Positions 42,576-61,607 of a stretch of DNA of 64,000 bases are shown here, piece after piece. The notes below the pieces were generated by a model. That model was given only the letters and a program-made list of their open reading frames with translations, was not told the DNA's origin and did not search any database. The position numbers and the translations under genes are program-made. The DNA lies in contig CAVYJB010000001.1 of NCBI GenBank assembly GCA_963768835.1, forward strand, positions 216,420-280,419, in the 5' to 3' direction. Numbering within the stretch: position 1 is the first letter of the stretch; the number at the start of each line of letters is the position of its first letter. This DNA is from an uncultured bacterium (GTDB lineage Bacteria > Patescibacteriota > Minisyncoccia > UBA6257 > GWB1-50-10).

Positions 42576-42648
42576 CGCAGGACCCTTTCAGATTGTTACC
42601 GAATGCTGCAATGCTTATACATCGAACACGCGCATGCGTCAAGATTAG

Positions 42649-42676
42649 TTGACCACCAACGGATTTTGCCCTATGG
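42649..42676 (+). promoter_or_regulatory. candidate promoter for tRNA-Pro
   Basis: TTGACC - 16 nt - TATGGT, about 18 nt upstream of tRNA 5' end. Confidence 0.35.
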
Positions 42677-42693
42677 TTGATGATGCTCCTGCT

Positions 42694-42764
42694 CCGGGGC
42701 GGAGTATGCCGGTAGTACGCACGCTTCGGGTGCGTGTAGACTGGGTTCGATTCCCAGCGCCCCG
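42694..42764 (+). tRNA. tRNA-Pro (anticodon CGG), C1:G72, no encoded CCA
   Basis: manual fold: 7-bp acceptor CGGGGCG/CGCCCCG, D-arm GTAT-GCCGGTA-GTAC, anticodon arm CACGC-TTCGGGT-GCGTG (U33, CGG, G37), T-arm CTGGG-TTCGATT-CCCAG. Confidence 0.8.
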
Positions 42765-42769
42765 ACACT

Positions 42770-43444
42770 ATGAAGGTTCTCATCTTCGGAAAAGAGGATG
42801 CTGTCATCCCGAAACTTGCGCAGGACGCCGGCCTCGAGGTCGTGTCTTCCAACCCTGAATTCGTTCTTTGCTATGGAGGCGACGGGACTCTGATGCAGGC
42901 GGAACACGCATTCCCTGGTATCCCCAAGGTGCTTCTGCGCGGGAGCGCCGTTTGCAAGAAGTGTTCGCGGCTTCCCAACGATGAGGTTCTACGGCGCATC
43001 GTGAAGGGAACCTACCGCATCGAGGAGCTCCCCAAGCTCGAGGCGCGCGCGAAGGGAAAGGCGCTTTGGGCGTTGAACGATATTATCGTGCACAATCAGA
43101 ACCCCCGGCACGCAATTCGGTACCGGCTCACGGTGGATGAGACACCAGAAGGAGAAGAGATTATCGGAGATGGGGTGGTGGTCGCAACCCCGTTCGGGTC
43201 GAGCGGCTACTACCGCAGCATCACGGACAGTTTCTTCGAGGTTGGCATCGGACTCGCTTTCAATAACTCGACGGAACAGTCCGACCACATGGTGCTCCGG
43301 GACGACCGGACCGTCCGACTCACGATCCTCAGGGGCCCCGCGGTGGTCTATGCAGACAACCAAGAGGAGAACATCGCGCTCGCCGAAGGCGACGTGATCG
43401 AGGTGAAAAAATCGGAAAAGCTTGCTAGAATGGTAGCCGTGTAA
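42770..43444 (+). CDS. nadK: NAD(+) kinase
   Basis: GGDGT motif (VLCYGGDGTLMQA) and NE/DD catalytic regions; 224 aa. Confidence 0.9.
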   Translation: MKVLIFGKEDAVIPKLAQDAGLEVVSSNPEFVLCYGGDGTLMQAEHAFPGIPKVLLRGSAVCKKCSRLPNDEVLRRIVKGTYRIEELPKLEARAKGKALWALNDIIVHNQNPRHAIRYRLTVDETPEGEEIIGDGVVVATPFGSSGYYRSITDSFFEVGIGLAFNNSTEQSDHMVLRDDRTVRLTILRGPAVVYADNQEENIALAEGDVIEVKKSEKLARMVAV

Positions 43445-43518
43445 GGGCCTATGGTTCAGTGGTAGAACGCGGCATTCGCATTGCCGAGACGGGAGTTCGA
43501 TTCTCCCTAGGTCCACCA
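43445..43518 (+). tRNA. tRNA-Ala (anticodon CGC), CCA encoded
   Basis: manual fold: acceptor GGGCCTA with G3:U70, D-arm GTTC-AGTGGTA-GAAC, anticodon arm CGGCA-TTCGCAT-TGCCG, T-arm GGGAG-TTCGATT-CTCCC, ACCA 3' end. Confidence 0.9.
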
Positions 43519-45013
43519 AAGTTCATCTCTCTCAAAAATATTTTGGACGCTTCGCGTCTTCTCCTGCGTTTCGGCCAGAGAGGAAAAGGGTTTTTTGAAA
43601 TCCACTACGAGCGTTCCCGAGGCAAGGCGGCGGTTCGAGCCGATGGCGGCAAGAAAATCTTTCATCGGTATCGGATTTTCTTGGTTAGTCAGATTTAGGG
43701 CTTGGTTGGCTTCGATTATCCAGTTTCTGAAAAGTCCGAGCCAACGATTTCCCTTTCGCTCAAAATCGCCCAGTTGCTCGTCGAGCGTCTTCTTTTCGGA
43801 CAGGAGCCGGTTCTTCGTCTCCTGATATTCTTGAAGCTCGAACGAGCCGGAAAGATAGCCGTCGTTGAGGCGGTCAATCTTCATTTTAACGGCGGCTATC
43901 TTCGTCCTTAGATTTTGCGCGAAAGCGTCCGACGAGCGGCGGGCTTCGCCCGTTTCCCCGTCCAGTTTCAATAAATATTTATCTCGCCACTCGTCGGGCA
44001 AAGAAGCTTTTTGGACTAGCTCCTTAACTTGTCCGGCAAGAACCTCCTCCCGCACAAAGCGGGTTTGCGAACAGACCTGCGTCTTGCTCTTGAAGGTGCA
44101 GTGATAGTAATGGTAAGTCCTGCCGTTCTTCTTCACCTTCCGCTCGCCCGTGATGGCATAGCCGCACTCGCCGCAGAGTCGCAAACCCGAGAAACGGGAA
44201 ATTCTTGTCGCCGCGCTTTTTGCGGGGCTTGCCGTTCAAGACCAGTGCCTCCTGTATCTCATCAAAAAGCTTCTTGGAAATCATCGGCGTATGCGAACCC
44301 TCGTGCACCTCGCCACGATAGCGGAAATGGCCGTAGTAGAACGGGTTGGTCAAAATCTTCTGAATGGAGGATAAGGCGAGGGGTTTGCCGTCCCTGCTCG
44401 TGAGCCCCACGGAAAACATCTTGTCCCGTATGGCCGTCTTCGTGTACCGCCCCGTGGCAAAAGCTTCAAGACATTCCTTCACTTTATTAAAAGTATTTTT
44501 ATCCGGCTCGATCGTACGCAAGCGCGGCTCGTTGAAATATCCCATCGGAGCTTTTGCCGACAGCTCGCCCCGCCGTATCTTCTGCCGTATGCCCCGCAAG
44601 ATGTTTTCCCGCAAATTGTCGGTGTAATACTTGGCCTGCCCGAACGCGACCGATAACATAAATTTTCCTTGCGGGGTCGGCTCAAACCAGAAGGTAGGAA
44701 ATTTGAGCGAAACAATATTGCCCGTGTCCACGAGATAGATGACCCTGCCGCCGTCCACGCTATTCCGTGCCAGTCGGTCGGGGTTCCACGCCAAGATGCC
44801 GGAAGCGACGCCCTGCTCAATCTGCGCCACCATCTCGCCGAACACAGGGCGGCCGGGTTCCTTCGCACTCTGGCTCTCGGTGTATTCGCGGACGATGAAA
44901 AGATTATTTTGCTCCGCGAACGCGCGAAGTTCGGCGAGCTGGGCTTCAATTGAAAGCACTTGACGCTCCTCGTCCTCCGACGACTTCCGGCAATAGATAA
45001 AATATTTATTCAT
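43507..45013 (-). pseudogene. large serine recombinase, frameshifted (N-terminal resolvase/recombinase domains 44024..45013; C-terminal zinc-ribbon/coiled-coil 43507..44184)
   Basis: N-ORF has [10 protein letters not shown] catalytic Ser region; C-ORF starts with zinc ribbon [12 protein letters not shown]; frames differ by 1 nt near 44175-44195 within ccc/aaa/ggg runs; C-terminus reads DELWWT through the tRNA-Ala 3' end. Confidence 0.8.
43513..43636. repeat. inverted repeat A, left copy (~125 bp, starts on tRNA-Ala CCACCA)
   Basis: reverse complement matches 45092..45216 with 1 mismatch seen. Confidence 0.85.
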
Positions 45014-45091
45014 AAGTTTGTACCGACAATTTTATAAATCTTCGCCGCCATCGGCTCTTGCGCGGATGAGCGCAAAACAAATTCCATTTGT

Positions 45092-45216
45092 AGAACCGCC
45101 GCCTTGCCTCGGGAACGCTCGTAGTGGATTTCAAAAAGCCCTTTTCCTCTCTGGCCGAAACGCAGGAGAAGACGCGAAGCGTCCAAAATATTTTTGAGAG
45201 AGATGAACTTTGGTGG
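45092..45216. repeat. inverted repeat A, right copy (ends in TGGTGG = inverted CCACCA)
   Basis: reverse complement of 43513..43636. Confidence 0.85.
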
Positions 45217-45478
45217 TGTTTGTATCATACAATTCGGACGCATTTCAAGCAAAATTCCTGACCGATTTACCCCATCACTTACCCCATCATGCGCTACCCC
45301 TCGGAGTGATGGGGTAGCAAGTCGAGATTGATCTGAAAAATATGGGCTTCGGGATGTCGCCGGAGAAAATCCAAAGTCCTACTTCACTCCGCTAGACCCC
45401 CTCCGAGATGGTGTGCTCAGCCCCTCGGCCTGCTGGCCTCGGGACTTCGCGTATGGCGCGCCCAAATTCCTCCCCCAA
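45211..45478. repeat. inverted repeat B, left copy (~268 bp, begins at the inverted CCACCA)
   Basis: reverse complement matches 48199..48465; contains internal palindromes (gctacccc...ggggtagc). Confidence 0.85.
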
Positions 45479-45528
45479 AAATAATATACCAAACTGGTAT
45501 ATTCCACAATCGATTATAACGTGTTAGT

Positions 45529-45753
45529 ATGTCTATGTCGAAGAAATACCAGCCAAAGTATCGGAAGCTAACACAGAAACTCCGCGCAGCACGCCTAGAA
45601 GCAGGATTTACTCAGGTAGAGGCGGGTAAGCGATTGAAAAGGCCGCAGGCTTATCTATCAAAAATCGAACGAGGTGAGCGCGGCGTGGATGCGGTAGAAT
45701 TGGCAGAGTTTGCAAATGTGTACGGCAAGAATATTAATTATTTCATAAAATAA
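45529..45753 (+). CDS. XRE-family helix-turn-helix transcriptional regulator
   Basis: LRAARLEAGFTQVEAGKRL...YLSKIERGER HTH_3 pattern; AT-rich. Confidence 0.85.
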   Translation: MSMSKKYQPKYRKLTQKLRAARLEAGFTQVEAGKRLKRPQAYLSKIERGERGVDAVELAEFANVYGKNINYFIK

Positions 45754-45758
45754 ACGGC

Positions 45759-47375
45759 ATGGAAGGAAGTGAGGATAACAAGGTTTTTTCCACTAGAACC
45801 ATCGTCATTACGATATTAATTATCGTGGGAGTTGTGTGCCTGGTAGCTTATATTAGCAACTCCTTTAGTAATAATGGAATTAGTACAAATAACAACACCG
45901 CTAACCAAAATTATTATTCGGCGCAAGGAAACTTCTCCGCCTATTTCCCCTCGCAACCAACATACTCGACTGCTTCTCAAGAATTAACCGCTAACAATGA
46001 AGTCGTTGAAGACGATTACTCTTGGGGACAAAGCGATGGATTCTGGAAGTCCCAACTTGAAGCGACTTATGTCGCTTCACCTTTTCCAAATTCAGCGTTG
46101 ACGCCGCAAAAGAATCTTGAAAGCGAGATACAATATACGGGCAACTCGAGCGCGTTTAATCTCATTTCCTCTACCTCTACAACATTAGATGGTTTTCCGG
46201 CCATCGCTTATGCCATTCAATCCAAATCAAATCCAACCGAATACAATATCGGGAAAGATGTGCTTACCAATCATGGTTTGTATATGCTCGGATATTTTTA
46301 TAGCGGCCAAGAAAATAAACAGCTAGAAAATACTTTTCTCAATTCTTTAACCTTTGGGACTCCTATCAACGCGAACGCGCCGCAAGCACCATCATCGCCA
46401 TCGCAACAAAATACGCAACCAACAAACCAGCAATCGCAAAACTCCGCTCCGAGTACCTCTGGTAGCTTGACGACGACATTAATCAATCGGATTGAGCCAT
46501 CCATTGTTGAGATAAATTGCTATTCAGCAAATGACAGCGTAGTAGTGAGTGGATCCGGCACATCCAATCTCAATAACGGAGTTCTTCATATTACAACTAA
46601 TTATCACGTTTATAATGAAGCTAGCGGAGGAGGAACGCCCACTTGCTATGCTGTTTATCCAGAGCCGCCAGATTTTTCGTACAACGCAGAATATGGAGAT
46701 TATCAACTCGTATTAGTTAGCCATGAATATGATACCGATACCTATGAAGATGAAGCAGAATTTACCATCGGCGCACTATATCCCTCAGCAACGCCATTGA
46801 ACCCTCTGCCATCAATTAATAATTTGCCGCTCACGGGAAGTGGCGGGGTAGGTTGTCCCGATGCAACTGTTGGCGATACCGTAACCGTTTTCGGCTATCC
46901 GGCATCGGGCAACTTACTTGGGATTTCAGAAACGGTAACGCAAGGAACGATAGCCGGCATTCTCCCGGGGCCGATTTATAAATTCGATGGCGCAATTGAT
47001 CATGGTAACTCTGGCGGCCTTGCTGTTTTGAATAAAGATAGTTGCGTTTTAGGCATTCCAACCTTAGGGGACTCGGGGCTTACGGCAGGAATCGGTTATA
47101 TTCAATCATTTAGTCTTGCAAGCCAGCCAGTAACGCAAACTAATGCCCAAATATGTCAAAACAATTATGGTGCATATAGTGTATGGAATGGACAAACCAA
47201 CAGTACAGGTGGGCCGACATGCGATTGCGAAAGAGGTTATGAGTGGAACTCGAACCAGACGGCGTGTGTTGCGCTTACGCCAGATCAAATATGCGAACGA
47301 GATATTGGTGCGGGAAGTTATTATCTGGGCTATGATAATCCAAACGGCACCTTGGCGTGTAGTAGCCCTAACTAA
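45759..47375 (+). CDS. membrane-anchored secreted trypsin-like (S1 family) serine protease with Cys-rich C-terminal domain
   Basis: N-terminal TM anchor; TNYHV (His), D, and DHGNSGG (Ser) catalytic triad context; Asn/Ser/Thr-rich linker; 10 Cys in last 90 aa. Confidence 0.7.
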   Translation: MEGSEDNKVFSTRTIVITILIIVGVVCLVAYISNSFSNNGISTNNNTANQNYYSAQGNFSAYFPSQPTYSTASQELTANNEVVEDDYSWGQSDGFWKSQLEATYVASPFPNSALTPQKNLESEIQYTGNSSAFNLISSTSTTLDGFPAIAYAIQSKSNPTEYNIGKDVLTNHGLYMLGYFYSGQENKQLENTFLNSLTFGTPINANAPQAPSSPSQQNTQPTNQQSQNSAPSTSGSLTTTLINRIEPSIVEINCYSANDSVVVSGSGTSNLNNGVLHITTNYHVYNEASGGGTPTCYAVYPEPPDFSYNAEYGDYQLVLVSHEYDTDTYEDEAEFTIGALYPSATPLNPLPSINNLPLTGSGGVGCPDATVGDTVTVFGYPASGNLLGISETVTQGTIAGILPGPIYKFDGAIDHGNSGGLAVLNKDSCVLGIPTLGDSGLTAGIGYIQSFSLASQPVTQTNAQICQNNYGAYSVWNGQTNSTGGPTCDCERGYEWNSNQTACVALTPDQICERDIGAGSYYLGYDNPNGTLACSSPN

Positions 47376-47383
47376 TAAATCAA

Positions 47384-48043
47384 GTGATGGACTATCTATT
47401 ATCTAACCCTAAATACGAAAAGGAGTTATTAGACGAACTGCCGGAAAAACTGAAACCTACTTTTCAAGAGAAGTTGTCGAGGGTGATGACGGGCTATTGG
47501 AAAACTTTGGCCGAGGCAAGGGCCATCGTTATTTTTTTCAAAAAGCTCAAGTTGTTACCTCCCGAATTTCAGGATATTGATATAAAGACATTCAAAGATA
47601 AAGATGTGGATTTTGCCTTTCTTTTTGATAAAGAAAAAATCAACGTCGAGGTTAAAGGATTTAATCCCGACGACGAAGCGTCCGAAGATTATAGTAGCTT
47701 CGCTATCAACACCGGAGACGATGATATTCGTAGGGCGTTAAAAAGAGCAAACAATAAGTTATTAGAAAATTCTTACAACATCGTCATAATCGCAGACGAA
47801 GACACTTTGCATCCGCTTGGTAATAAGAAGCAGGACGAGTTAGATAAAATTTTTGAAGAGGATTTTTATAAAAAGATAAGTGCTTTTATAATTCTCGGCC
47901 CACTTTGGGCAGGCGACCCATTCAAACAATCCGATTTTCTATCCGGTCCTGCGTTCAAATTTACTAGCATCGCCTACAATAAAAATGCACAAAACCCCTT
48001 ACCCTCAAAGTTAAGGGATGCGCTGGATAAAAATAGGGAGTAA
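47384..48043 (+). CDS. hypothetical protein
   Basis: 219-aa Lys/Asp/Glu-rich ORF, AT-rich, same cargo segment. Confidence 0.6.
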   Translation: MMDYLLSNPKYEKELLDELPEKLKPTFQEKLSRVMTGYWKTLAEARAIVIFFKKLKLLPPEFQDIDIKTFKDKDVDFAFLFDKEKINVEVKGFNPDDEASEDYSSFAINTGDDDIRRALKRANNKLLENSYNIVIIADEDTLHPLGNKKQDELDKIFEEDFYKKISAFIILGPLWAGDPFKQSDFLSGPAFKFTSIAYNKNAQNPLPSKLRDALDKNRE

Positions 48044-48198
48044 TAATCGTCTCTTGCCCGCGCAATGGGAGAGCTGGGGCAAGGGCAAGAACCGCTTTCT
48101 TGAGGGTCAGGCACGCAAGACGTAGGATTTTCCCGCCAGACAGGAATAGGGTCGCAAAACGTGGAACTACCACCTCTGAGCGCGCCCCAAAGGAGGGG

Positions 48199-48465
48199 TT
48201 GGGGGAGGAATTTGGGCGCGCCATACGCGAAGTCCCGAGGCCAGCAGGCCGAGGGGCTGAGCACACCATCTCGGAGGGGGTCTAGCGGAGTGAAGTAGGA
48301 CTTTGGATTTTCTCCGGCGACATCCCGAAGCCCATATTTTTCAGATCAATCTCGACTTGCTACCCCATCACTCCGAGGGGTAGCGCATGATGGGGTAAGT
48401 GATGGGGTAAATCGGTCAGGAATTTTGCTTGAAATGCGTCCGAATTGTATGATACAAACACCACC
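48199..48465. repeat. inverted repeat B, right copy (ends CCACC)
   Basis: reverse complement of 45211..45478. Confidence 0.85.
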
Positions 48466-48510
48466 CGACACTGCTTATAAACCAACACCGCCCCCGAGGG
48501 CGGTGTTGCG

Positions 48511-49977
48511 CTATTTCACGTGATGCCTTTCCTTCATTTCCTCTTCCGCCCCCGCCTCGAACTCGTCTTTCTTCTCGCGGGCCTTGGAAGATAGCTTCTG
48601 GAGTTCCGCATCGGAGAGCATTCCAAGCTCCCGGGCTCGGGTTTCAAGATAAACCTTCTCGTTTCGTCTCGGATCGTCCAGCACGTCCTCGAGAAGGATA
48701 GAAAGAACGGCGCCTATTTTCGGTCCCGCCGGAATATTGAGCATCCGCATCACATCATCGCCCTTGACCGCAAGCATCTTCGGATGGATGGGGTCTCGGC
48801 GCACCTTATCGATCATGAACAGCAGGTGACGGAGTTTGTATGGGAAGGCCTTCGGGACGCCGGAGCCGATGCGATCAGCCTCGCGAACCTTCAAAAGATC
48901 GTCCACGTGCTCGGGGCCCACGCGCACCAGGAACCGCCGCACGCCGGCTTCGGTTACCTCCCCCACGTTGTAGTAGAAGAGATGGCAACGTACGAGATGA
49001 GTTACCTCTTCCACAATCTCTTTCGAGAAGCGCAACCGATCCAGTATTTTTGCAGTCATCCGTGCGCCCACCATCTCGTGGTTATAGAAAGTGGAGTCGG
49101 GTCCATCCCCGCCCTTCGTGCGGGGCTTCCCTACGTCATGCAGTAGCGATGCGAGCCGCACCACGAACGAGTAGTTCTTCTCGGCCGCGTAGTTCAAGGC
49201 CCGCACATTGTGATCGAAAACCGTGTAGATGTGGTGTTTGTTCTGGCCGCACCCGATGCCCTCGCGCAACTCGGGGACGATGAACTGGAGGAGTCCTAAC
49301 TCCTCAAGCAGCACGATTCCTTCCGCCGCGCGCGCCGTGAGTAACATCTTCGTAAATTCGTCTCGCACGCGCTCCTTTGCGATCATCTCAAGATGCGGGG
49401 CTCCTGCCTGGATGGCTTCCCGGGTCTTGGGCTCAATAGCAAAACCCAGCTCCACCGCGAAACGCACCGCCCGAAGAAGCCGCAGCGCGTCCTCCCCAAA
49501 CCGTGCGGCAGGGTCCCCCACCGTGCGGATGGTTTTCCCCTTGAGGTCTTCCCGGCCCCCATAGGGGTCGATGATGCTATCCGCTCTATCCCCCGCAAGA
49601 CTGAGGGCGAGGGCGTTCACGGTGAAGTCGCGACGCGCGAGATCCTCTTCGATGGTTTTCGCGAACTTTACTTCGTCAGGATGTCGCTGGTCCGTGTAGC
49701 GCCCCTCAATACGATAGGTGGTCACCTCGACGACTTTGAGTTTTGAGTCCTCGGACTCGGTCTTCACGCCCACCGTGCCGAAGGTGTTCTCGTAAACGGA
49801 ATCGGGGAAGAGCTTCTGGATTCCCTCCGGCTTCGCGTTCGTTGCCACATCCCAGTCCTTCGGGTCGCGTTTCAGGAGCAGGTCCCGTACGCACCCCCCC
49901 ACCGCATATGCCTCGAAACCGGCGCCCGTGAGCGCCTTCGCGATGGCCCGTACTTCCTTCGGAACCTTGAATTCCAC
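48511..49977 (-). CDS. cca: CCA-adding tRNA nucleotidyltransferase with HD domain
   Basis: N-terminal Pol-beta-like NT motif GGCVRDLLL...DWD, central HD domain, 488 aa. Confidence 0.9.
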   Translation of the reverse strand: MEFKVPKEVRAIAKALTGAGFEAYAVGGCVRDLLLKRDPKDWDVATNAKPEGIQKLFPDSVYENTFGTVGVKTESEDSKLKVVEVTTYRIEGRYTDQRHPDEVKFAKTIEEDLARRDFTVNALALSLAGDRADSIIDPYGGREDLKGKTIRTVGDPAARFGEDALRLLRAVRFAVELGFAIEPKTREAIQAGAPHLEMIAKERVRDEFTKMLLTARAAEGIVLLEELGLLQFIVPELREGIGCGQNKHHIYTVFDHNVRALNYAAEKNYSFVVRLASLLHDVGKPRTKGGDGPDSTFYNHEMVGARMTAKILDRLRFSKEIVEEVTHLVRCHLFYYNVGEVTEAGVRRFLVRVGPEHVDDLLKVREADRIGSGVPKAFPYKLRHLLFMIDKVRRDPIHPKMLAVKGDDVMRMLNIPAGPKIGAVLSILLEDVLDDPRRNEKVYLETRARELGMLSDAELQKLSSKAREKKDEFEAGAEEEMKERHHVK

Positions 49978-50531: not shown

Positions 50532-52130
50532 TTATTCCCGCGAGCAGGATAGAATGCTTGAGAAGCGCCCGTAGCTCAACTGGATAGAGCATTTGCCTTC
50601 GAAGCAAAGGGTTCCAGGTTCGAGTCCTGGCGGGCGCACAAAGTGAGACGTTTCGCCGTCAAAGTCCCTGTTTAGCGAGAAGACAAGGGATAGTTCGGCG
50701 GTTCCAAATTTCCCGTCCGCAAAAGTTACTTTTTGCGGGAATACTAGGTTTTGGAACCTAACCTTGAGGGGGTACTTAAGCCGCCGCCACGTCTCGGATG
50801 AATTCCGGACGAACTGGAAGCAGTAATCGAGAGCCGCCTCCATGTTGAATTCCTCGATATGGTTTTCTCGCAAAAGGCGATGCTTCTCCGCAATTCGTTC
50901 GTTAATAATCGCTTTTTGTTCCGTAAATTCGTCGTCGGTGTATTTGCCCGCCCGGTGCAAATCAAACACCTTGAGCCGTTCCTGTTCTAGCTCTCCTATC
51001 TCCCGCCGGGTTCGTTCGCTAACCTCATTGAACTGCTTATAGTTCGTTTTCCATACGTCAAGGACCACAGCGCGAAATAGTTTTTCAAACCGCGCGGACG
51101 GGCTAATTTCCGTGAGATACTTGGCGAACTGGTCCTCAAACTCCTTTTGCGCGATGAACTTCGCCTCTGTGCATCCCTGAATATGGTGATGGTAATAGGC
51201 GTAGCGCTTGCCCTTGCGCCCCGTTGAGGTACTTCCTGTAAGCGCTCGCTTACACACGGGACAGTGAACGAAGCGCCGAAGGGGAAAGTCTGGGTTCGCT
51301 ACGTTGCGGACCAAAGGGCGCGCTCCGCCCTCGCGGACCAAGCGGCACTCCTCGAATACTTCTGGCGTCACTAAACTCTCGAACGTCCCATTGTTTCGTT
51401 CTCCAAATGCTTCAATGATGCCGCAATAGAGGGGGTTCTCTAGAACACGCTGAATAAACTGTTTCCTCGGTTTCTTGCCCGTCGTGGTCCGCAAACCGCG
51501 CTCAGCCATATACTCTGCTAACGATTCGTAACTGTGGGTTCCCTCGCGCCATTCGTCAAATATAAGCCGGTAAAGGTGCTTTGTTGCTTCAATGGGGGCG
51601 ATATTCGAGCCCTTTGCACCCCTTAGGGGCCGATAATAACCAGGTGGTTCTCTCCACTGCCAAATGCCCTTTCTAACATTTTCTAACATCCCGCTTTTAG
51701 AGCGCTCGGTACGCACGTTGTTATCGAACTCTGCAAAAACGGATAACATCCCCTCCATCGCCGCGCCTACTGGCGTGCTATCTATTGGTTCAGTTGTTGA
51801 GCAAAGCTCGGTGCCGTGTTTGTTGAGAATCGCACGGACCGTCGCGTGGTCATACTGCTTACGCGAGAAGCGGTCAATTTTGTAGACGATGAAATAATCT
51901 ACAGGGTGCCTTTTGTCCGAGCAAAACGCAATCGCTTTAAGGAATTCCGGTCTATTGGCGGTCTTCGCGGATTCTCCCCGATCCACAAACACCTTGAGTA
52001 ACTCGATACCGTTCCGGGCGGTGTACTCCCGAATGTTTTTCTCCTGCATTTCCAAGCTAGTGCCCTCCACTTGCTCTTTCGAGGAGACGCGGCAATACCC
52101 AATCCCAGTTTTCTTCTCTATGACGCTCAT
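50532..52130 (-). CDS. large serine recombinase (integrase); 3' end reads antisense through tRNA-Arg
   Basis: GYCRVSSKEQ catalytic Ser region, recombinase domain, zinc ribbon HCPVCKRALTG, coiled-coil; 532 aa. Confidence 0.85.
   Translation of the reverse strand: MSVIEKKTGIGYCRVSSKEQVEGTSLEMQEKNIREYTARNGIELLKVFVDRGESAKTANRPEFLKAIAFCSDKRHPVDYFIVYKIDRFSRKQYDHATVRAILNKHGTELCSTTEPIDSTPVGAAMEGMLSVFAEFDNNVRTERSKSGMLENVRKGIWQWREPPGYYRPLRGAKGSNIAPIEATKHLYRLIFDEWREGTHSYESLAEYMAERGLRTTTGKKPRKQFIQRVLENPLYCGIIEAFGERNNGTFESLVTPEVFEECRLVREGGARPLVRNVANPDFPLRRFVHCPVCKRALTGSTSTGRKGKRYAYYHHHIQGCTEAKFIAQKEFEDQFAKYLTEISPSARFEKLFRAVVLDVWKTNYKQFNEVSERTRREIGELEQERLKVFDLHRAGKYTDDEFTEQKAIINERIAEKHRLLRENHIEEFNMEAALDYCFQFVRNSSETWRRLKYPLKVRFQNLVFPQKVTFADGKFGTAELSLVFSLNRDFDGETSHFVRPPGLEPGTLCFEGKCSIQLSYGRFSSILSCSRE
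50565..50638 (+). tRNA. tRNA-Arg (anticodon TCG), no encoded CCA
   Basis: manual fold: acceptor GCGCCCG/CGGGCGC, D-arm GCTC-AACTGGATA-GAGC, anticodon arm TTTGC-CTTCGAA-GCAAA, T-arm CCAGG-TTCGAGT-CCTGG. Confidence 0.85.
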
Positions 52131-52414
52131 GGTGTAATTTTACCCTCGTCCTCTACACGATGTAAGCCCCAAGCGGGACTTTTGGAACCGCCCCCTATCC
52201 CTAAATATCCACCATTTTCCACCCAGTCATCGAACATAACACCCGCAAGCCCGTACAGTGCCCCCAATACGCGTTCCAATTCGTCGTCTGGGACGCTTTC
52301 TAGGCTTGGGTCTACCTTTCTAGCTTGGTCAACAGATAACATGGATTTCATAGGCACCCGCCAATCTACCAAAATCAACCATTTCCTACCGTTTACTACC
52401 GATAAAATCGGATG

Positions 52415-52855
52415 CTACATAACCTGCTCATCGGCCCATGTATGAGCCCTTTCACGCATATCTGTGATATTTTTTGCAACAAACATGAGAAACGCCGGAT
52501 TCTTAAAATAGCCGTTTAAGCCACCGACAATGACGACCTGTTTCTGTATCTCCTTGCACTCCCCGTAGGAGGCGGAAAACTCTTCATCTTGCTTTCTATA
52601 GCTCTCTAGGGTGTCAGCTGATACATTTATCGTCCGGGCAAAATCCCTAAAGAATGGAATCGCTTTCCGCTCGCTTAAATGATCGAGGCAATCCTCGAAA
52701 TAGCGGATCATTTCCTGTCCGAGCTCAGGCAAAGACTCTTTGGGGTAGGCGCGCGGCCTCCCTCCATTATTTCCAACTGCATATGTGTTTCCTTTTGGTG
52801 CTGGCATAAAAGAAAAACCCTCAAGAGAGGGCACAAAAACGCTTGCTTTGTGCAA
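52415..52855 (-). CDS. small-terminase-like DNA-binding protein (KGNxxAxGNxGGRP motif)
   Basis: probable start MPAPKGNTYAVGNNGGRPR at 52807; C-terminal FVAKN...W.DEQ resembles TerS tails. Confidence 0.5.
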   Translation of the reverse strand: MHKASVFVPSLEGFSFMPAPKGNTYAVGNNGGRPRAYPKESLPELGQEMIRYFEDCLDHLSERKAIPFFRDFARTINVSADTLESYRKQDEEFSASYGECKEIQKQVVIVGGLNGYFKNPAFLMFVAKNITDMRERAHTWADEQVM

Positions 52856-53244
52856 TCTCTTGAGGGTTTGCCACCGACAGCCTCTGCCGCTTACAAAAGT
52901 AAAGTTTTGTAAGGGCTAGGGAGGGCTCCCAACAGGCCAACTGCGGCTTTCGCCGCCGAGCTTGGGTTCATTTCCCTATGTTTTTCGTGTACCTCCTGTA
53001 ATGGTCAAGGCATTACACCTTCCATTAATGATTCTAGGTACCTTATCGCGCCCAACGTAATAGGTTTGGGAATTACGTTAAACTTGTCTCCGAAATGAGC
53101 TATCCAATCCTAGTACAAGTATAGCACGATTATTTGCGAAAATCAAATCGAGCTCGCCAAAAAATCGAGATTCCCTTAATTCTCTTATAAATTATATTAA
53201 AATATACCAATACTTCCGAATCTATGATTTCCCGGGTGTAAGTA

Positions 53245-55950
53245 TTAGAAAGCCCCATCAAATACCTTCTCGAATGCTGTTTCCTCATCGCGGTTGTAAA
53301 ACGGCAACCCTAAAACCCGATATTGATCCGTGTCTAATAGCGTCTTAACTAGACCTGCCACTTGAAGGTCTTTCAGAAAATTCTCTTTTGGCTTGTCCTC
53401 GGCCGACAAAAATTCACCTTTAGGCTCGATAAAAATCTGCCAAACACGATTTGCGCTCCGCTTACCGACTTTAGCTTTGCGTTGCACAAGACATAGAAGA
53501 TAGTCGGGCTGAAACGCTAGTCCTTCCTTAAAGGTGTAAAGCGTAATAACCCTCTCGTTTCGAATGAGATAAATCTCGCTGTAGCGCTTTTTTAATTTTT
53601 CAATGCGTCCATCGACAAATTTCACTAACCATTTTTCCTGATCTGTCCCAAAATCATCCTCATACACGTACCAATCACGCACATCAAGATTTAACCGCAG
53701 TGCTTGGTCTGTCGGCGGCACACGCACGCCATTCTTAGCCTCATATTCCCTACCGGACATAGAGCGTCCTCGCTCTTGTACTCCGGTCGGCATAGTCACC
53801 TGTATCTTTTTGTCGTTAATGAGCGTCGCTAGTTGTTGGGGTTTGAATTCCCTACTTCCGCGATATGTTGCTGTATGGGCAAGAATAGCGGTCTGTACTT
53901 CTCCTAAAATATGGACCAGTTGAATGAATACCTCGGAAGTCATCACCAAATCCCCGCCTTGCGGAATATGTATATCCACACGGATACGTCCGAGATATTT
54001 CGAGCCAGCAATAAATTCTTTGATGGAGGTGAGTTTGGGAAAATAGCGCCGGAGGTTGTCATAGTGGAAGAATGGCAACTTATCCATTGCTTTCCGTACA
54101 GCGTGCGCTGAGAGGTCGCCAAGCACCATACTAGTCGTCTTGTATTCGGGGTCCCTACCTCTGCCGTTCGTTTCGAATGCCGCTGTATCTCCGGAAAATC
54201 CCGATGCAACATGAATTTCAAGCGGCCTTCCTACCGCATCCGAAAATTTAGCAACCCCTATCCCAGTAGTTTCCTCCCGCGAATTCACAAAGACTCTTGC
54301 CCGACGGTAGAAGGGGGATTTTCGAAAATTACCCTTAAGCCGCAGGGGTAGTTCAACCGATTCATCAATCGCAAATCCTGTTTGTTTTAGAGCCTCTTTA
54401 AGTTCGCCAATATATCGGTGGTCCTCTTTGCTATGAAAATGCATCTGCTCCAGGGCCCGAAGCGGATTGCCTAAATCATTGTCGAACTTCCGTCGATCTA
54501 ACGGCTGACTGTCGTTCAATCGAAATGGCCAATATCGCGCTCCGCGCCCAATCAATTGAGCCTCGCGAATCGTGGCACGAATCCTACCCCTCTCGTCGTA
54601 AAGACGCACAATATCAAAGAGATTCAATACATCCCATCCCTCATTCAGAACCTCGACATCGAAAACTGCGCGAATTGGGTTGGTGGCATCTTCCAAATTT
54701 ACTAAGGTATTCAATAGTTTCGGATTGCGCCCAGTAATGGTGCCGTTAATAACCACACAGCGCTCGTGAGAAAACTCTGCCCTTAATATTCTCGCTAGCT
54801 GTGAATCAGAAATGTTGCTTTCTTCGTAAAACGTCAGGGCATCAAGCAGAATCCTGCTTTCAGATCGCCTCATCGCGATTTTCTTGAGCGCGGCAATATC
54901 TTTTGCTTCCAGGACATCAACCAATGCCCGGAATCGCTCGTAGTCATACTGTTGGGCATTAATGCGGTTAGATTTCAATAAAACCACGGGCTTAAGGGCT
55001 TTTTTGCGGCTTTCAGCAAGCTGTCGGCGGTATTCGGATATAACAAGTGCCTGGAGAATCCGCCCCTCAAGGCTTGCTTCTGAACGATGCAAAAACACAT
55101 CTTTTGAGTATCCGTCATTACGGAACTGTGGAAGGTCGTACTCAATAAGCACTCGTTCCGCATATTTCCGCGCGATGTTCTGATCGTTCCATCCAATGGT
55201 TGCTGTGAATTCTAGAAGCACGTTGTCCCGATGACTTTCAACAAGTTGTCGGATGGTCCATTCCCAAGAGGCCTCTAGCTCTCGTTCTTCCTGTTCACCG
55301 GCCCGAGTCAATGCATTAACGTGATGGGCCTCGTCAGAAATGAAAACCGTTTTCTCTCTTTTGAAGTCGTCCAAGGTAACGCTGTTTTCTTGAGAGTTGC
55401 GAATTCGGCTATGTAACCCGGCTAGCGTAGTGAAGATGATATTGATTGCATCAGGACTTCCAGATTCAAAGTTTTCTACCTCTCGAATCACAACCTCGTT
55501 CCCATGAATCACTACCGGGTCACGAAAAAGATATTTTGCGGATGATTTCTGTAAAAAATTATCCCTTGTTTTTAAGACAATGTTTGTCTTATCAACGAAA
55601 AATACAAAGTTACGGTAACCACGAGAATACAGATACAAAATCGCGCCCGCCATCACAACGGTCTTTCCACTGCCGGTCGCCATACTAAAGAGGAGTTCAG
55701 TGGGGCGTTTACGGTGGTCGTCCTTCTCAAGGTGGAAAACAAACCGAGAAAGAGCGGTTAGTTGGTACGGACGGAGGATGATCCCTGGCCGAAGATTTTC
55801 GGTAATGAGCCTCGGTATGGGGGTGACGCTACGCTCCTCAAGAACCTCATACCGCTGCGCTAGTCGTAGCGTGCTAGTGGTTGGCATAAAACGCTCGTGA
55901 ATGTTCTTTATCCTTTGCTGACACCTTGAATGTTGCGTCCTCCATGTCAC
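53245..55950 (-). CDS. res: Type III restriction endonuclease Res subunit (SF2 helicase-nuclease)
   Basis: helicase motif I ATGSGKT, DEAH box FISDEAHH, 901 aa, overlaps mod 3' end. Confidence 0.9.
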   Translation of the reverse strand: MTWRTQHSRCQQRIKNIHERFMPTTSTLRLAQRYEVLEERSVTPIPRLITENLRPGIILRPYQLTALSRFVFHLEKDDHRKRPTELLFSMATGSGKTVVMAGAILYLYSRGYRNFVFFVDKTNIVLKTRDNFLQKSSAKYLFRDPVVIHGNEVVIREVENFESGSPDAINIIFTTLAGLHSRIRNSQENSVTLDDFKREKTVFISDEAHHVNALTRAGEQEERELEASWEWTIRQLVESHRDNVLLEFTATIGWNDQNIARKYAERVLIEYDLPQFRNDGYSKDVFLHRSEASLEGRILQALVISEYRRQLAESRKKALKPVVLLKSNRINAQQYDYERFRALVDVLEAKDIAALKKIAMRRSESRILLDALTFYEESNISDSQLARILRAEFSHERCVVINGTITGRNPKLLNTLVNLEDATNPIRAVFDVEVLNEGWDVLNLFDIVRLYDERGRIRATIREAQLIGRGARYWPFRLNDSQPLDRRKFDNDLGNPLRALEQMHFHSKEDHRYIGELKEALKQTGFAIDESVELPLRLKGNFRKSPFYRRARVFVNSREETTGIGVAKFSDAVGRPLEIHVASGFSGDTAAFETNGRGRDPEYKTTSMVLGDLSAHAVRKAMDKLPFFHYDNLRRYFPKLTSIKEFIAGSKYLGRIRVDIHIPQGGDLVMTSEVFIQLVHILGEVQTAILAHTATYRGSREFKPQQLATLINDKKIQVTMPTGVQERGRSMSGREYEAKNGVRVPPTDQALRLNLDVRDWYVYEDDFGTDQEKWLVKFVDGRIEKLKKRYSEIYLIRNERVITLYTFKEGLAFQPDYLLCLVQRKAKVGKRSANRVWQIFIEPKGEFLSAEDKPKENFLKDLQVAGLVKTLLDTDQYRVLGLPFYNRDEETAFEKVFDGAF

Positions 55951-57673
55951 TGTAGTTCAGATATAGGTGGTTCATATCCAAACAATCAAGTAAGGCCTTT
56001 TTTTGGTGCAGGATGTCCAGCTTTTCAAACTTCTCTCTGCCGAACTTTTCCGGTCGCACAGGATAGCGGAAAAACGCTTCCTTCTGCATCTTTTTCCAAA
56101 TACTAAGTAAATCTTTTGTTGTTTTAGCATGTTCAATTTGTGTAACGTACCCAGCATTGAGTTGGTATAGTTCCATGTAAACAAAGCTACCACCTCCCCC
56201 CCAACCAACCTCCTGAGAAATTCCCGTCTGATCGCCCTTGATAATTTTTCTCAGTCTAGCGGTCGAATCGTTCTTGCTGTAATTGAGTTGCTCTATCCCG
56301 ATATAGCGACGTTTCATTTTGTGAGCTACCGCACAAGTCGTGCCACTGCCCAAATGATAATCCATCACTAAGTCGCCTTCGTTTGAGGCCATCTCTACAA
56401 TCCTTTTCAATAACTTTTCCGGCTTCTGAGTTAGAAATTCTTTGATTAGTTCAGTGTGATCTCTTTGGCTTTCTATGTAGGCTCGAGGATCTGCATAAAC
56501 TTGCCGAATATCAGTCCAAACAGTGGAAAGAGGGGTGCCCTTACTTTCATCAAGATACTGCTTAACCCAAATAGTCTTACCGTTTTTGTCGCGCCCGCGC
56601 ATTCTTTTTTGGTAACGCCTTCCATCCTCATCTACGTTTTTGAACCAGTCTTTTAGATACTTTTCTGAATACTCAATGTAGACCTTGTTTTGTTTTCGTT
56701 GAGTATAGTCTTTTGCATAATGCAGAATGTAATTGTGGATACCTACCGGCTTCGCTGTCGCGGCACGCCCACCGGAAGGTGAACCGTAGGACGAAACTAT
56801 CTCTTCAACAAAATTGTCTCTCCCAAAAACCTCATCGCACAGGACCTTGAGATAATGTGCTTCGTTGTCATCTATGTGAATAAAAATGTTTCCATCGCTC
56901 GATAAAAGATCACGAGCCACGCTTAGCCTATTCTTCATAAAAACCAACCAAGTAGAATGACTAAACTTGTCGTTGTACTTAAACTCATCCGAAGTGGTAT
57001 TAAAGGGTGGGTCTATGTATATCAGATTCACTTTTCCCCAGAAACGAGGCAAGAGCGAATATAGGGCCAAAAGATTATTGCCTCGAATGAGCAGGCTGTC
57101 ATTGGGACGAACGGTGTCAAGTGGCCACTTTCCTTTTTTATCAAAGCGCGTCCAGTTCGTGAGCACCTTCGGTTCGCGAAGTCGATCTACTTCGTCTGGC
57201 GCTAGTGTCGTGTTGTAAAAAATTTCCTCGCGCTTCTCGTCCGTTCTTTCCTGACCGCCCTCTAACACACAATCTTTATAGGGGAATGCTAGAACGACGT
57301 CGCGCGATTGCTTCAGTAAATCCCGGTCCGTCGTAGAAAGTCCAATATCGTTCCGAAATGCTGTGTACGAGCCGGGAAGAAAATCTGTCATTGCCACGAA
57401 GTCAATAAGTTTTTCTCGGAGCAGAACGGCTCCTACGCCAGGAACGGTTACAAAAAAATGTGCCCGTAAGACGGGCGCCGAGAATAACAACTTTACTAAT
57501 ATCGGATCAGCTCCGGCGGACAACTGTTCTAACTCCGTAATAAGCAACTGCGGCTTTTCGTCGTGGGACCACGATCGCTTATCTCTCCGCAGGACCGCAT
57601 CAAGAATAGCGCTTAGCTTCCCCCGTCCGCGACGACCACCGTCCTTCTTTTCCTCGTGTTTTTTGGTGGCCAT
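55874..57673 (-). CDS. mod: Type III DNA methyltransferase Mod subunit (N6-adenine)
   Basis: LIYIDPPF motif IV, SAM motif, 599 aa; 77-nt overlap with res typical of Type III systems. Confidence 0.9.
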   Translation of the reverse strand: MATKKHEEKKDGGRRGRGKLSAILDAVLRRDKRSWSHDEKPQLLITELEQLSAGADPILVKLLFSAPVLRAHFFVTVPGVGAVLLREKLIDFVAMTDFLPGSYTAFRNDIGLSTTDRDLLKQSRDVVLAFPYKDCVLEGGQERTDEKREEIFYNTTLAPDEVDRLREPKVLTNWTRFDKKGKWPLDTVRPNDSLLIRGNNLLALYSLLPRFWGKVNLIYIDPPFNTTSDEFKYNDKFSHSTWLVFMKNRLSVARDLLSSDGNIFIHIDDNEAHYLKVLCDEVFGRDNFVEEIVSSYGSPSGGRAATAKPVGIHNYILHYAKDYTQRKQNKVYIEYSEKYLKDWFKNVDEDGRRYQKRMRGRDKNGKTIWVKQYLDESKGTPLSTVWTDIRQVYADPRAYIESQRDHTELIKEFLTQKPEKLLKRIVEMASNEGDLVMDYHLGSGTTCAVAHKMKRRYIGIEQLNYSKNDSTARLRKIIKGDQTGISQEVGWGGGGSFVYMELYQLNAGYVTQIEHAKTTKDLLSIWKKMQKEAFFRYPVRPEKFGREKFEKLDILHQKKALLDCLDMNHLYLNYSDMEDATFKVSAKDKEHSRAFYANH

Positions 57674-57700
57674 GACTTATAAATCTTTAGCTCTTCATTG

Positions 57701-58141
57701 TTATTCTCTCAAGCTCTGCGGCCATATTATTTTCTGTACAATCCGGCGGGCAGGAATTACCCCCTCAATTCCGTGCTTCTTCGCAATTTCTAACGGGAGA
57801 TGGATAAGGATAGGAACAGGAAGTTGACGATCTGCTTCTGGGACCACAGCCTTATTCACGTAGTACCCGACCCGGTCAAGTATGTCCCGGCAGGCATTCA
57901 GTCTCACGCTCTCGCTCCGTGCCTTCTGCGAGAGGTGAAATACCATCGAGGCGACATCTCCCGCTCGTTCCTCCAAATACGCCCGAATGTTAGGTTTTGT
58001 TAGGTTCTCACTCCCCACAGAACGCGCTGTAGCCCTGTTCTGAGGCTTGTAGGCGCGGCTAGCGGCTTCTGTAGCGTTTCCCGTTTCAAGATAGGCGCTC
58101 GCAAATTTTCGCTGTTTTTTAGAGAGCCCCTCCATTTTCAA
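57701..58141 (-). CDS. terS: phage terminase small subunit (P27/Terminase_2 family)
   Basis: LSKKQRKFASAYLETGNATEAASRAY N-terminal signature. Confidence 0.8.
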   Translation of the reverse strand: MKMEGLSKKQRKFASAYLETGNATEAASRAYKPQNRATARSVGSENLTKPNIRAYLEERAGDVASMVFHLSQKARSESVRLNACRDILDRVGYYVNKAVVPEADRQLPVPILIHLPLEIAKKHGIEGVIPARRIVQKIIWPQSLRE

Positions 58142-58149
58142 GTTGTATT

Positions 58150-59261
58150 CTATTTGTCTTCAGCCCATTCAAACCTATCCTTGAGTCGGGCATATCTACT
58201 AAAAGGAATTTTTCCGAAGTGCTCAAGTCTGCCGATAACAATGCCCGTATCAATTTTTTCCTTCTCGGAGAATTTCTTTATGCATTCCATCGTATAGCAG
58301 TTGCCTTCTAGAAACTCATGAAAGTCTTTGCTTGGAATTAAGACCTCAGAAGCAAACTCGTTTGCCTTTAGCTCCTTCTCGCTTTTCTCATTAAGCCCAT
58401 TCTCAAAATCGATATTGAGCTCTCTTTTCCCATGAAGTAGGAGATGCCCTATCTCATGGAACAAACTTGAACCAAAATATATCGCATGACCGGTAGAGTA
58501 TACTCATTTGTATCATGGCTTTTTCTGGAGAAAGCCCACCTAGACACTCCATTGATGGGGGTGTTTTTTAGGCTCGGGGTTACAGTAAAGGCAACGCCAC
58601 ACTTCGATAAGATATTTTGGATCCCGTCTTGTATGGCCTTTGGTTTTTCAAGAATCAAGGCGCGGATTTGTGGTACGGCATCTCGAAGTTTTTCTGCATC
58701 GAATTTCTCTGTTGGAGCGCCCTGACAATCAACAATCCCTTTTCTCAGCCAAGCGGCCACAGATTGGGGAGATACCTTTCTTTTTTCAGACTTCCTGTAG
58801 AGTAAGGTGAGATCTCCCATTAACTCTCTCTTTACAACATCTTTTAAAGAAACGGCGCCGAAAAAGGAGCGAAGATTACCCACCATTTCAATCGAATCTC
58901 TTGTGGCAGGCACCCAATTCAGTTTCTCCATTTCAATATATGGGTAGGACGTTGAGATTTTTATCTCCTTACTCATAGCTTCTTGATCCCGAATTCTAGC
59001 TTTCACGTCCTGATAGTTAGATTCCAAGTTGTTCCAGACACCCGCGGGAATGCTCAAGACCTGTTCGAGTTGAATTACCGTCTCTGCAGTGATTGCTGTC
59101 TTGCCCTTTATAATTTCGTTTACCACTTGTAATGGCCGTTGCATTCTGCGGGCGAGATCGGCCTGGGTCATATTTCTTTCCTGAAGTGCCTCAAGTAAGG
59201 TTTCTCCCGGCGCTATCGGCAGTATTGGATAGTATGAAGTGAATTTTTTGAGCATGGTCAC
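58150..59261 (-). pseudogene. XRE-HTH / ImmA-IrrE metallopeptidase fusion (HigA-like antitoxin), frameshifted
   Basis: 58449..59261 carries HTH (MTQADLARRMQRPLQ) and peptidase N-part; 58150..58464 starts FHEIGHLLLH (HExxH); 16-nt overlap in different frames. Confidence 0.7.
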
Positions 59262-59605
59262 TTTTCCTTGTGGTAATTAATTTTTATCTCTGCGACTGAC
59301 AATGAGTCTATTTTATTCCAATCAACCCCCCCGTTCTCTTGAGTGTAAGTTCCAGGGTCGTTTTCAATATTAAAGATGATTCTGTCCGGCTCTACCAAAT
59401 GGACCCCAATTTGATGTTTCCTGTCATATTTTAACTCGTGCCACTTTCCTGGTGCATGCCGTAAATCAGCAAGGGTATTTGCGGAACGCGCTTGATCAAG
59501 TCGAAGAAAAATTTTCTTTGCCATAGGAACACCAAACGCTGCCTTGCATGTTCGGAGCGAAGTTAATTGGTGTCTGAGTTTCTGGGAAATAAAAACTTGC
59601 ATCAT
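59258..59605 (-). CDS. HigB-like (RelE/ParE superfamily) toxin
   Basis: PGKWHELKYDRKHQIGVHLVEPDRIIFNI matches the HigB killer-protein pattern; ATGA overlap with downstream antitoxin. Confidence 0.7.
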   Translation of the reverse strand: MMQVFISQKLRHQLTSLRTCKAAFGVPMAKKIFLRLDQARSANTLADLRHAPGKWHELKYDRKHQIGVHLVEPDRIIFNIENDPGTYTQENGGVDWNKIDSLSVAEIKINYHKEK

Positions 59606-61076: not shown

Positions 61077-61090
61077 GCTCTTATAAAGCC

Positions 61091-61441: not shown

Positions 61442-61487
61442 AAGAATGCCCCGCGTGGCGGGGCATTCAGCAATGGATGGAGGGGTG

Positions 61488-61607
61488 ACTGCCGGGCGGA
61501 GGCAAGACCGATGTTGTCGTTGCGGTTGTCGTCCCAGTTGTTGTTGACGTTCAAGCCGTCGGAATCGAAGTTGCCGACGTTGACCCGGTTGCCGTCCGAA
61601 TCCACAT
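61488..61607 (-). repeat. DGR template repeat (TR)
   Basis: 120 bp; differs from VR at 15 positions, all T on + strand (A on coding strand); coding-strand translation rich in AAC (Asn). Confidence 0.9.

Follow-up and report, generated by a model that had tools for sequence, protein, structure and literature searches.

This report concerns a segment of about 5 kb beside a tRNA-Ala gene in DNA of an uncultured member of the Patescibacteria (CPR), which are ultra-small bacteria; the whole stretch that was analysed, 64,000 nucleotides (nt) long, is called the window here. The segment carries a large serine recombinase (LSR) gene bounded by one long inverted repeat, termed IR-A, and a cargo bounded by a second, termed IR-B, and it is probably an integrative element. 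The first-pass annotation had described an LSR gene between inverted repeats of about 125 bp with one mismatch, with the left copy starting on the CCACCA of the tRNA and encoding the recombinase C-terminus and the right copy ending in TGGTGG. A repeat search bears out this description with a small adjustment. The arms at 43513-43636 and 45093-45216 are 124 nt long and 99% complementary, with one A/G mismatch, and the right arm starts at 45093, not 45092, and terminates in TGGTGG. The left arm opens with the CCACCA of the tRNA because the tRNA-Ala(CGC) gene occupies 43445-43518. We also share the view that this geometry is odd for an integrative element. A near-perfect inverted repeat of 124 nt cannot arise by chance in 64 kb. 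The locus contains the following features:

43445-43518, plus strand: tRNA-Ala(CGC) gene, the predicted integration target (ARAGORN; Rfam tRNA, 69 bits)
43507-45013, minus strand: LSR gene, cut at the tRNA so that it ends in ...WWT and a stop codon
43513-43636: left arm of IR-A (X), the genuine 3' end of the recombinase gene, codons NRRL...ELWW
45014-45092, minus strand: region upstream of the recombinase gene, with motif TTGTCGGT, a 14-nt remnant and two hairpins
45093-45216: right arm of IR-A (X'), where the last ~41 recombinase codons recur as a spare copy in inverted orientation
45212-45478: left arm of IR-B (core plus Y)
45217-45261, plus strand: tail-coding start of the Y arm, 14 codons reading CLYHTIRTHFKQNS and a stop codon, in frame with X'
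45479-48198, plus strand: cargo segment of 2.7 kb, GC content 0.41-0.45 against ~0.55-0.60 in the flanks
45529-45753: XRE-type helix-turn-helix (HTH) gene, in the cargo
45759-47375: gene for a protein of 538 amino acids (aa) without assigned function, in the cargo
47384-48043: 219-aa gene without assigned function, in the cargo
48199-48465: right arm of IR-B (Y' plus core)

The minus-strand open reading frame (ORF) of the recombinase reads through the end of the tRNA and finishes with ...ERDELWWT and a stop codon. By domain content the enzyme is an LSR, as had been proposed: three Pfam domains score above their cut-offs, namely Resolvase PF00239 (77.1 bits, cut-off 23.3), Recombinase PF07508 (42.1, cut-off 21.1) and Zn_ribbon_recom PF13408 (31.9, cut-off 25.3). 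The structure 4KIS (A118 Int) matches residues 190-415 with E = 7e-10, and 9DXH (SPbeta SprA) aligns with residues 6-433. No solved structure aligns beyond about residue 433, which leaves the last ~80 aa and the tail unmatched. Proteins of the family are 501-523 aa long and have the LSR architecture. The reading frame of the window gene is not intact: a +1 frameshift near 44178, placed by alignment to three related loci (L001, L076 and L008), splits it into ORFs at 44024-45013 and 43507-44184. This frameshift may stem from an error in the long reads or mark a true pseudogene, and the window copy is possibly inactivated. L076, a separate assembly, also has indels in its recombinase gene. Exact-protein look-ups with the NAD kinase of the window and with the 329-aa recombinase ORF returned no match.

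The homology of the two IR-A arms resumes for 14 nt (43637-43650 / 45044-45057) beyond a 35-nt insertion in the right copy, so that a recombinase-coding remnant of 14 nt is left at 45044-45057. In all loci the spare copy has its inner boundary at codon NRRL. Exactly at this edge lie two small hairpins (45058-45075 and 45077-45091), both of them conserved. In an RNAalifold analysis of 35 loci, 9 of the 15 hairpin pairs hold through changes on both sides. Between the hairpins and the recombinase start, the motifs GAGCCGAT and TTGTCGGTGTAA are nearly invariant in these loci, and the motif in the 45020-45033 region is invariant. Together, hairpins and motifs could form a terminator or insulator plus an operator or promoter. 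At the cargo edge, a near-consensus sigma-70-like promoter (11 of 12 positions, minus strand, 45513-45541) is directed through the junction of IR-A and IR-B to the recombinase gene, and transcription from it would yield an RNA whose 5' leader complements the recombinase gene's own 3' end. Promoter and terminator scans gave nothing above the shuffled expectation, and an Rfam scan found no match in the repeats apart from tRNAs.

The window-wide repeat search revealed IR-B at 45212-45478 / 48199-48465, with arms of 267 nt that are 100% complementary. IR-A and IR-B overlap in the 5-nt core GGTGG. L081, a short-read unitig of 2770 bp from Logan, corresponds exactly to the window cargo plus ~25 nt of each arm. 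Real inverted repeats give such a pattern in a de Bruijn graph, and the ends of this unitig thus support IR-B independently. The element in the window has one recombinase gene only. Across the family the cargo varies between loci, and restriction-modification and defence genes are frequent; the gene types include type II restriction-modification, AAA/OLD-TOPRIM proteins, KAP NTPase and NUDIX. Apart from the recombinase, the one conserved gene is the XRE-type HTH gene of the cargo, which is also frequent. Neither a rolling-circle gene nor a relaxase gene is conserved within this variable cargo. A recombination directionality factor was not identified in the element, no dedicated test for one having been made.

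Using the frameshift-corrected recombinase protein as query, we scanned one-genome-per-species contigs and metagenomes. At least about 580 candidate stretches in each of the two scans encode a relative, and more than 6,000 clustered database homologues were found at E <= 1e-50. The best 80 loci from genome contigs and 80 from metagenomes, 160 in total, were analysed. The best 80 genome loci are nearly all labelled Patescibacteria, among them Saccharibacteria, Parcubacteria, Woesebacteria, Berkelbacteria and other lineages, and their recombinases are 64-96% identical to that of the window. IR-A, with arms of at least 100 nt, surrounds the homologous gene in 55 of these 80 loci. In these relatives it measures 124-133 nt and places an inverted copy of the gene's 3' end upstream of the gene start. 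Within a locus the arms have a median identity of 99.2% (100% in 25 of the 55), and between loci they diverge widely. Wherever the upstream sequence suffices, a second repeat of 145-397 nt adjoins IR-A and encloses 1.5-5.2 kb of cargo. The same layout of IR-A and IR-B is found in the complete genome CP055308.1 (L069) and on contigs of 380-800 kb. The recombinase gene runs into a tRNA or a transfer-messenger RNA (tmRNA) gene in 120 of the 160 loci, and at least 84 of the 160 combine Y and core upstream with a tRNA at the recombinase 3' end. Many matches sit 100-400 bp from a contig end; such frequent breaks beside the recombinase gene are due to the repeats. Viral contigs gave just two partial matches, both at contig ends, and therefore no link to phages. 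Full-text literature searches retrieved no description of this family or architecture. The element is apparently a widespread, undescribed variant of LSR integrative elements; comparison of the loci is what brings out its architecture, its three types of junction, the coding constraint on its tail, a circle-like contig and cargo in two orientations.

The integration target was identified in 121 of the 160 loci: tRNA-Ala in 104 (anticodon UGC, GGC or CGC), tmRNA in 5 and other tRNAs in 12. The last bases of the tRNA-Ala gene in the window, CCAC(CA), are the shared core. In related loci, unoccupied tRNA-Ala genes mostly read ..GGTCCAC followed by variable sequence, whereas occupied ones mostly read CCACCA. 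As the free genes share ..GGTCCAC and diverge thereafter, the crossover would lie in CCAC, and the encoded CCA end of occupied genes is supplied by the element. The core CCACC is present three times in the window element, at junctions of tRNA with X, of Y' with X in inverted orientation, and of Y' with the host:

43513-43517, plus strand: site 1, attL-like, with tRNA half-site, core CCACC and X arm; the same junction type occurs in 15 fully resolved loci
45212-45216, minus strand: site 2, internal inverted attP-like site, with Y' arm, core CCACC (GGTGG on the plus strand) and X arm
48461-48465, plus strand: site 3, attR-like, with Y' arm, core CCACC and host flank

This three-site pattern is repeated in the 15 fully resolved relatives, and the compared junctions are consistent with attP x attB recombination at a central dinucleotide. 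A check by eye for pseudo-symmetry between the X and Y half-sites gave no convincing result. From these junctions it seems likely that 43513-48465 is one integrated copy of a compact (~5 kb) integrative element. Two further observations concern the target. In L165 and L141, tRNA-Ala genes that are otherwise free, without an adjacent recombinase, are followed by X-arm-like sequence (CCACCA then TTCCGAATTTGTTAAAGAAGTTGCC..., and CCACCA then AAATTGATTTGC...), which looks like solo scars of lost elements. The host gene directly to the right of the window element (48511-49977) encodes a protein of the CCA-adding enzyme / poly(A) polymerase family with the domains PolyA_pol, HD and tRNA_NucTran2_2; a gene for a CCA-adding enzyme thus adjoins a tRNA whose encoded CCA comes from the element.

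One contig looks like the free circle of such an element. L088, a SPAdes contig of 12,034 bp with a coverage of 28, has no tRNA and repeats with a period of 8,026 bp. It contains one continuous inverted repeat of 448 nt with 100% identity, arranged as Y'-core-X / X'-core-Y. This repeat separates a 1.5-kb segment with an intact, tailed recombinase gene from 5.6 kb of cargo with a KAP NTPase, two methyltransferases, DpnII and an HTH gene. Excision of the window element between sites 1 and 3 would give the same structure. IR-A and IR-B would then be the halves of one long repeat, predicted to be 386 nt in the window, because integration splits it.

These data lead us to a model of a twin-attP integrative element, representing an LSR-driven family throughout the Patescibacteria, which as a whole we consider probable. 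The free form would be a small circle that carries attP (Y' arm, core CCAC(C), X arm) twice, as a long perfect inverted repeat dividing the recombinase segment from the cargo segment. The recombinase would catalyse attP x attB recombination at the CCAC with which the tRNA-Ala gene ends, and so join this site to one of the attP copies. Integration would thereby split the long repeat into X/X' (124 nt, around the recombinase) and Y/Y' (267 nt, around the cargo), and the unused attP copy would stay, inverted, between the two repeat pairs. The reading frame of the recombinase itself contains the crossover core, so that integration via the attP at the 3' end of the gene would replace a conserved tail of 14-20 aa by a single threonine and a stop codon. 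The spare copy, at 45093-45261, would keep the last ~41 codons together with the tail.

The frame of the spare copy passes through the core into the Y arm, where it encodes this family-conserved tail of the pattern (V/I)RT(H/F)F..NP, which reads CLLEKVRTHFEQNPD, CLLDEIRTFFEQNPEDFAD (each followed by a stop codon) or SLYQKVRTHFQQNP... in other loci. For the first 12 tail codons, 35 distinct sequences gave proportions of synonymous (pS) and nonsynonymous (pN) differences of 0.75 and 0.22, a ratio of 0.29, and Arg-Thr and Asn-Pro are invariant despite several different codons. Judged by this pattern, the tail is under protein-level selection, and it must therefore be translated in some state that links the real gene with a Y arm. 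Such a joined form is found among the homologues. The tail is present in ~27 of the 120 best full-length homologues (~22%; lengths 515-523), the remaining ones reading into a tRNA antisense, and in 21-29 of 120 C-terminal fragments that include sequence upstream of the repeat. In L086 a tailed gene is followed by Y and then by an HTH cargo gene, and this linkage is not a mis-join at the repeat since the upstream copy is only 45 nt long. We also considered that the spare copy is a small independent protein; there is no conserved start codon, and stop codons lie just upstream in several loci, so the spare copy is probably not a separate gene.

Both segments were compared for orientation. The cargo occurs both ways round, with ~14 against 5 among 19 loci. 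For example, the window cargo is flipped with respect to the homologous cargo of L001, a 96%-identical relative, and that of L073 with respect to L008 and L069. For the recombinase, ~120 of the 160 loci show the orientation of the window and 1-4 the flipped one. The flipped state is clearest in L087. This host contig of 46 kb reads tRNA-Ala(+), X, upstream region, recombinase(+) with tail, and Y; its arms are just 93% identical, so that the assembly is unambiguous. In L047, L074 and L075 the tRNA-Ala likewise lies upstream of the recombinase gene. These loci were first taken as flipped and are ambiguous, because their contigs stop in or at the repeat; L074 has tRNA-type bases at both ends. Another candidate, L152, with its recombinase between two different inverted tRNA-Ala genes, was considered as a product of attP with a second attB. 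Outside the inner 68 nt, its arms belong to different subfamilies, which favours homologous recombination between a pair of neighbouring elements as the explanation. In L089 and L132 an additional Y-cargo-Y' module lies between recombinase and tRNA, which fits tandem accretion followed by deletion. On a larger scale, the block tRNA-Pro - NAD kinase - tRNA-Ala - element (42600-49977) is inverted with respect to its outer flanks when the window is compared with L001. One breakpoint of this inversion is the far end of the element (site 3), and tRNA-Pro has a CCACCA motif immediately to its left, at ~42649-42660.

The attP copies are identical far beyond the footprint of a recombinase, and the orientation bias of the recombinase segment therefore needs an asymmetric outcome. 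The truncated recombinase may represent a locked or functionally altered state that makes integration stable, and this locking may cause the bias. A rare inversion between the 124-nt arms would bring back the full-length enzyme and a mobile state, and so would integration by the other attP. As to the purpose of the twin attP, we infer, very tentatively and with some doubt, that the form of the recombinase records whether the element is integrated: loss of the tail would lock the island, and the spare attP would be a built-in way back that needs no separate directionality factor.

Several points weigh against the twin-attP model. Random use of the two attP copies predicts recombinase orientations of ~50:50, which is far from ~120 against 1-4. 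To our knowledge, canonical LSRs perform neither attP x attP nor attL x attP recombination, and we know of no reaction that would use the internal site. Both attP copies within a closed period are found in L088 alone, whose first 53 nt are off the period, and a tandem array is possible there. L152 does not count as an example of recombination between attP and a second attB. Short-read assemblies can be mis-routed at repeats of 124-133 nt, and L074 shows both linkages in one contig. Finally, the frameshifted recombinase of the window means that this copy may be inactive, unless the frameshift is an assembly error.

Among the other explanations, a programmed inversion switch survives best. Here, the main reason for the repeat would be that its 124-nt arms serve to flip the recombinase gene, through the recombinase itself at sites 1 and 2 or through host RecA, and thereby alternate between the form ending in WWT and the tailed one. 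The spare copy holds exactly the last ~41 codons plus the conserved tail, the arms are maintained at ~99-100% identity, the adjacent cargo occurs in both orientations, and L087, flipped and tailed beside a tRNA-Ala, is not a mis-join given its 93% arms. The three loci with tRNA-Ala upstream of the recombinase would add to this, but they end in or at the repeat. A ratio of ~120 to 1-4 is unlike known phase switches, which assemble in both states, and attL x attP is not a permitted LSR reaction. Moreover, a twin-attP circle that integrates by its other copy also yields the flipped state without any inversion. We regard the switch as a possibility to be taken seriously, although the balance is against it. 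The self-inverting cassette suggested by the first-pass annotation finds weak support: the segment seen both ways round is the cargo, whereas the recombinase has the same orientation in 120 of the 160 loci and only L087 is a solid flip. IR-A is better accounted for as one half of a long repeat of the free circle that integration has split.

A single-stranded route of integration seems very unlikely. In this scheme a single-stranded circle would fold X/X' and Y/Y' into a stem of ~390 bp that forms attP, comparable to the attP(+) of CTX phage or an integron attC, and the integrated form would be this strand linearised at one strand of the stem. The integrated order core-X...X'-core'-Y...Y'-core is exactly as predicted by the scheme, and selection on the stem would account for the perfect complementarity of the arms. 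On the other hand, serine recombinases make concerted double-strand breaks, which on such a stem would leave the chromosome ends capped with hairpins, the variable cargo has no conserved rolling-circle or relaxase gene, and L088 shows a double-stranded form with both copies.

Nested or tandem integrations, also proposed in the first-pass annotation, would mean that successive insertions at a tRNA-Ala hotspot left the right arm behind as the 3' end of another recombinase gene in opposite orientation. Tandem accretion is known in the family (L089, L132), and L165 and L141 have solo X-like scars. However, the copy ends at the same codon (NRRL) in every locus and is always attached to the same conserved Y arm, and it is ~100% identical to the resident gene while the elements themselves differ widely, which independent decay would not produce. 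The right arm appears instead to be half of a conserved internal attP-like site and no remnant of a second element, and we consider nested integration highly improbable. There is equally scant room for two adjacent transposon-like modules with terminal inverted repeats and a transposase-like activity, an explanation that we hardly credit. Inverted repeats that include the core do bound each segment, and the place of Y-cargo-Y' with respect to the recombinase varies (L089, L132), but there are no target-site duplications, insertion always occurs at the same base of a tRNA or tmRNA 3' end, a phage-type LSR is the only conserved enzyme, and the arm ends resemble attP half-sites common to both modules.

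That the locus is an artefact of a collapsed or folded-back repeat has next to no probability: related contigs often end 100-400 bp from the gene and L074 folds back at the repeat, but the same architecture recurs in independent assemblies made with different methods, on contigs of 380-800 kb and in a complete genome, the arms differ by one mismatch and an unequal 35-nt insertion, and an independent short-read unitig backs the neighbouring repeat. The first-pass annotation had asked for misassembly to be excluded and for the locus to be compared in related genomes. The comparison, which includes the complete genome and the long contigs, finds the layout again and excludes misassembly as far as a comparison can, with the same pair of arms in 55 of 80 genome loci. 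Recurrence across loci and unitig L081 are the grounds on which the readings as misassembly and as a nested remnant were rejected.

The element shares features with several known systems. Phage-type large serine integrases (A118/LI Int, SPbeta SprA, phiC31 and Bxb1) have the same set of resolvase, recombinase, zinc ribbon and coiled coil, include the nearest solved relatives (4KIS, 9DXH) and have in common the attL/attP/attR-like logic around a short core. Unlike them, the present element targets the 3' end of a tRNA or tmRNA, has its core within its own ORF and carries an inverted duplicate of attP. The serine DNA invertases Hin, Gin and Pin also consist of a serine recombinase beside a segment flanked by inverted repeats; the cargo of the present family occurs both ways round. 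However, these enzymes are small (~190 aa), have an HTH at the C-terminus and depend on Fis and an enhancer for recombination at 26-bp sites, whereas the enzyme here is an LSR of ~500-520 aa, not a small recombinase, and the repeats are 124-400 bp long. In myxophage Mx8 (intP/intX) and in the integration-dependent immunity of mycobacteriophage BPs, attP lies in the coding region, and integration alters the C-terminus and with it the activity or stability of the protein. A change of the C-terminus is common to these systems and the present element, but Mx8 and BPs use tyrosine integrases and have no inverted spare attP. The yeast 2-micron plasmid (FLP/FRT), a small circle, has two unique segments that occur in both orientations, separated by a long perfect inverted repeat with the recombinase site; FLP is a tyrosine recombinase that recombines its two identical sites. 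The likeness of the predicted circle to this plasmid is one of geometry only, since the present element integrates and lacks conserved replication genes.

In the ssrA islands of Dehalococcoides, the gene of the LSR DsiB lies beside attL at the 3' end of the tmRNA gene, with the repeat embedded in the integrase gene (PMC3146451). Variable cargo, tandem accretion and an LSR at attL are shared with our element. The islands have a 20-bp direct repeat and a six-gene integration module with DsiB, the small serine recombinase DsiA, and RecF-like, ParB and Mom genes, and no inverted repeats are mentioned for them (PMC3146451). Neither the module nor the direct repeat is matched here, and the window cargo is unlike the module. 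The archaeal 'suicidal' integrases of SSV1, pTN3 and pT26-2 have their att site in the integrase gene, which is disrupted on integration; the intact gene provides its own control of directionality, and a review calls these integrases exclusively archaeal (PMC8371274). The att core lies inside the ORF in the present family too, where integrated copies end in WWT and a stop codon. The archaeal enzymes are tyrosine recombinases split into two large halves, whereas here a bacterial serine enzyme loses 14-20 residues and the element keeps a spare copy. By analogy only, the element might be seen as a milder, bacterial and serine-type counterpart of the 'suicidal' integrases. With Islander-type islands it shares insertion at a tRNA or tmRNA 3' end with regeneration of the gene; the tyrosine integrase and the displaced direct repeat of the tRNA are absent, and only the 4-5-nt core is repeated, at 48461-48465. 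Genomic islands that target tRNA genes are usually described with tyrosine integrases (PMC4383910).

Other parts of the window also contain mobile-element and repeat features. A second, unrelated LSR gene (50532-52130, minus strand), only 22% identical to the tRNA-Ala family, has an ORF that reads antisense through tRNA-Arg(UCG) at 50565-50639. Beyond it lie the two genes of a type III restriction-modification pair (53245-57673), a gene for an HTH protein and, at 60147-61076, an ORF that encodes a reverse-transcriptase domain. This region (50532-61100) has no long inverted repeats; there are only a 19-nt pair (50697-50715 / 52174-52192) and, at 59947-59964, 18 nt of the tRNA-Arg T-arm in inverted orientation. 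At 18000-21200, two neighbouring genes are full of GC-rich repeats with a period of 9 nt that code for collagen-like Gly-X-Y on the minus strand, and they share diverged flanking repeats ~1.7 kb apart (families D1-D10). A direct repeat of 121 nt with 87% identity is present at 61487-61607 / 61970-62090, its copies 483 nt apart (family D7).

A serine integrase that targets tRNA-Ala or tmRNA, an att core in the integrase's own gene and a duplicated, inverted attP are not known to have been reported together. If the tail is indeed a state-dependent switch, it would be a new solution to the problem of integrase directionality. The Patescibacteria are still hard to manipulate genetically, and the predicted attP (~50-60 bp around 45214), together with the universal tRNA-Ala attB, is a candidate integration tool for them. 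Considering how common the elements are and that they carry mainly restriction-modification and defence genes, the family is probably one of the main paths by which genes are exchanged among bacteria that have tiny genomes and in which few mobile elements are known.

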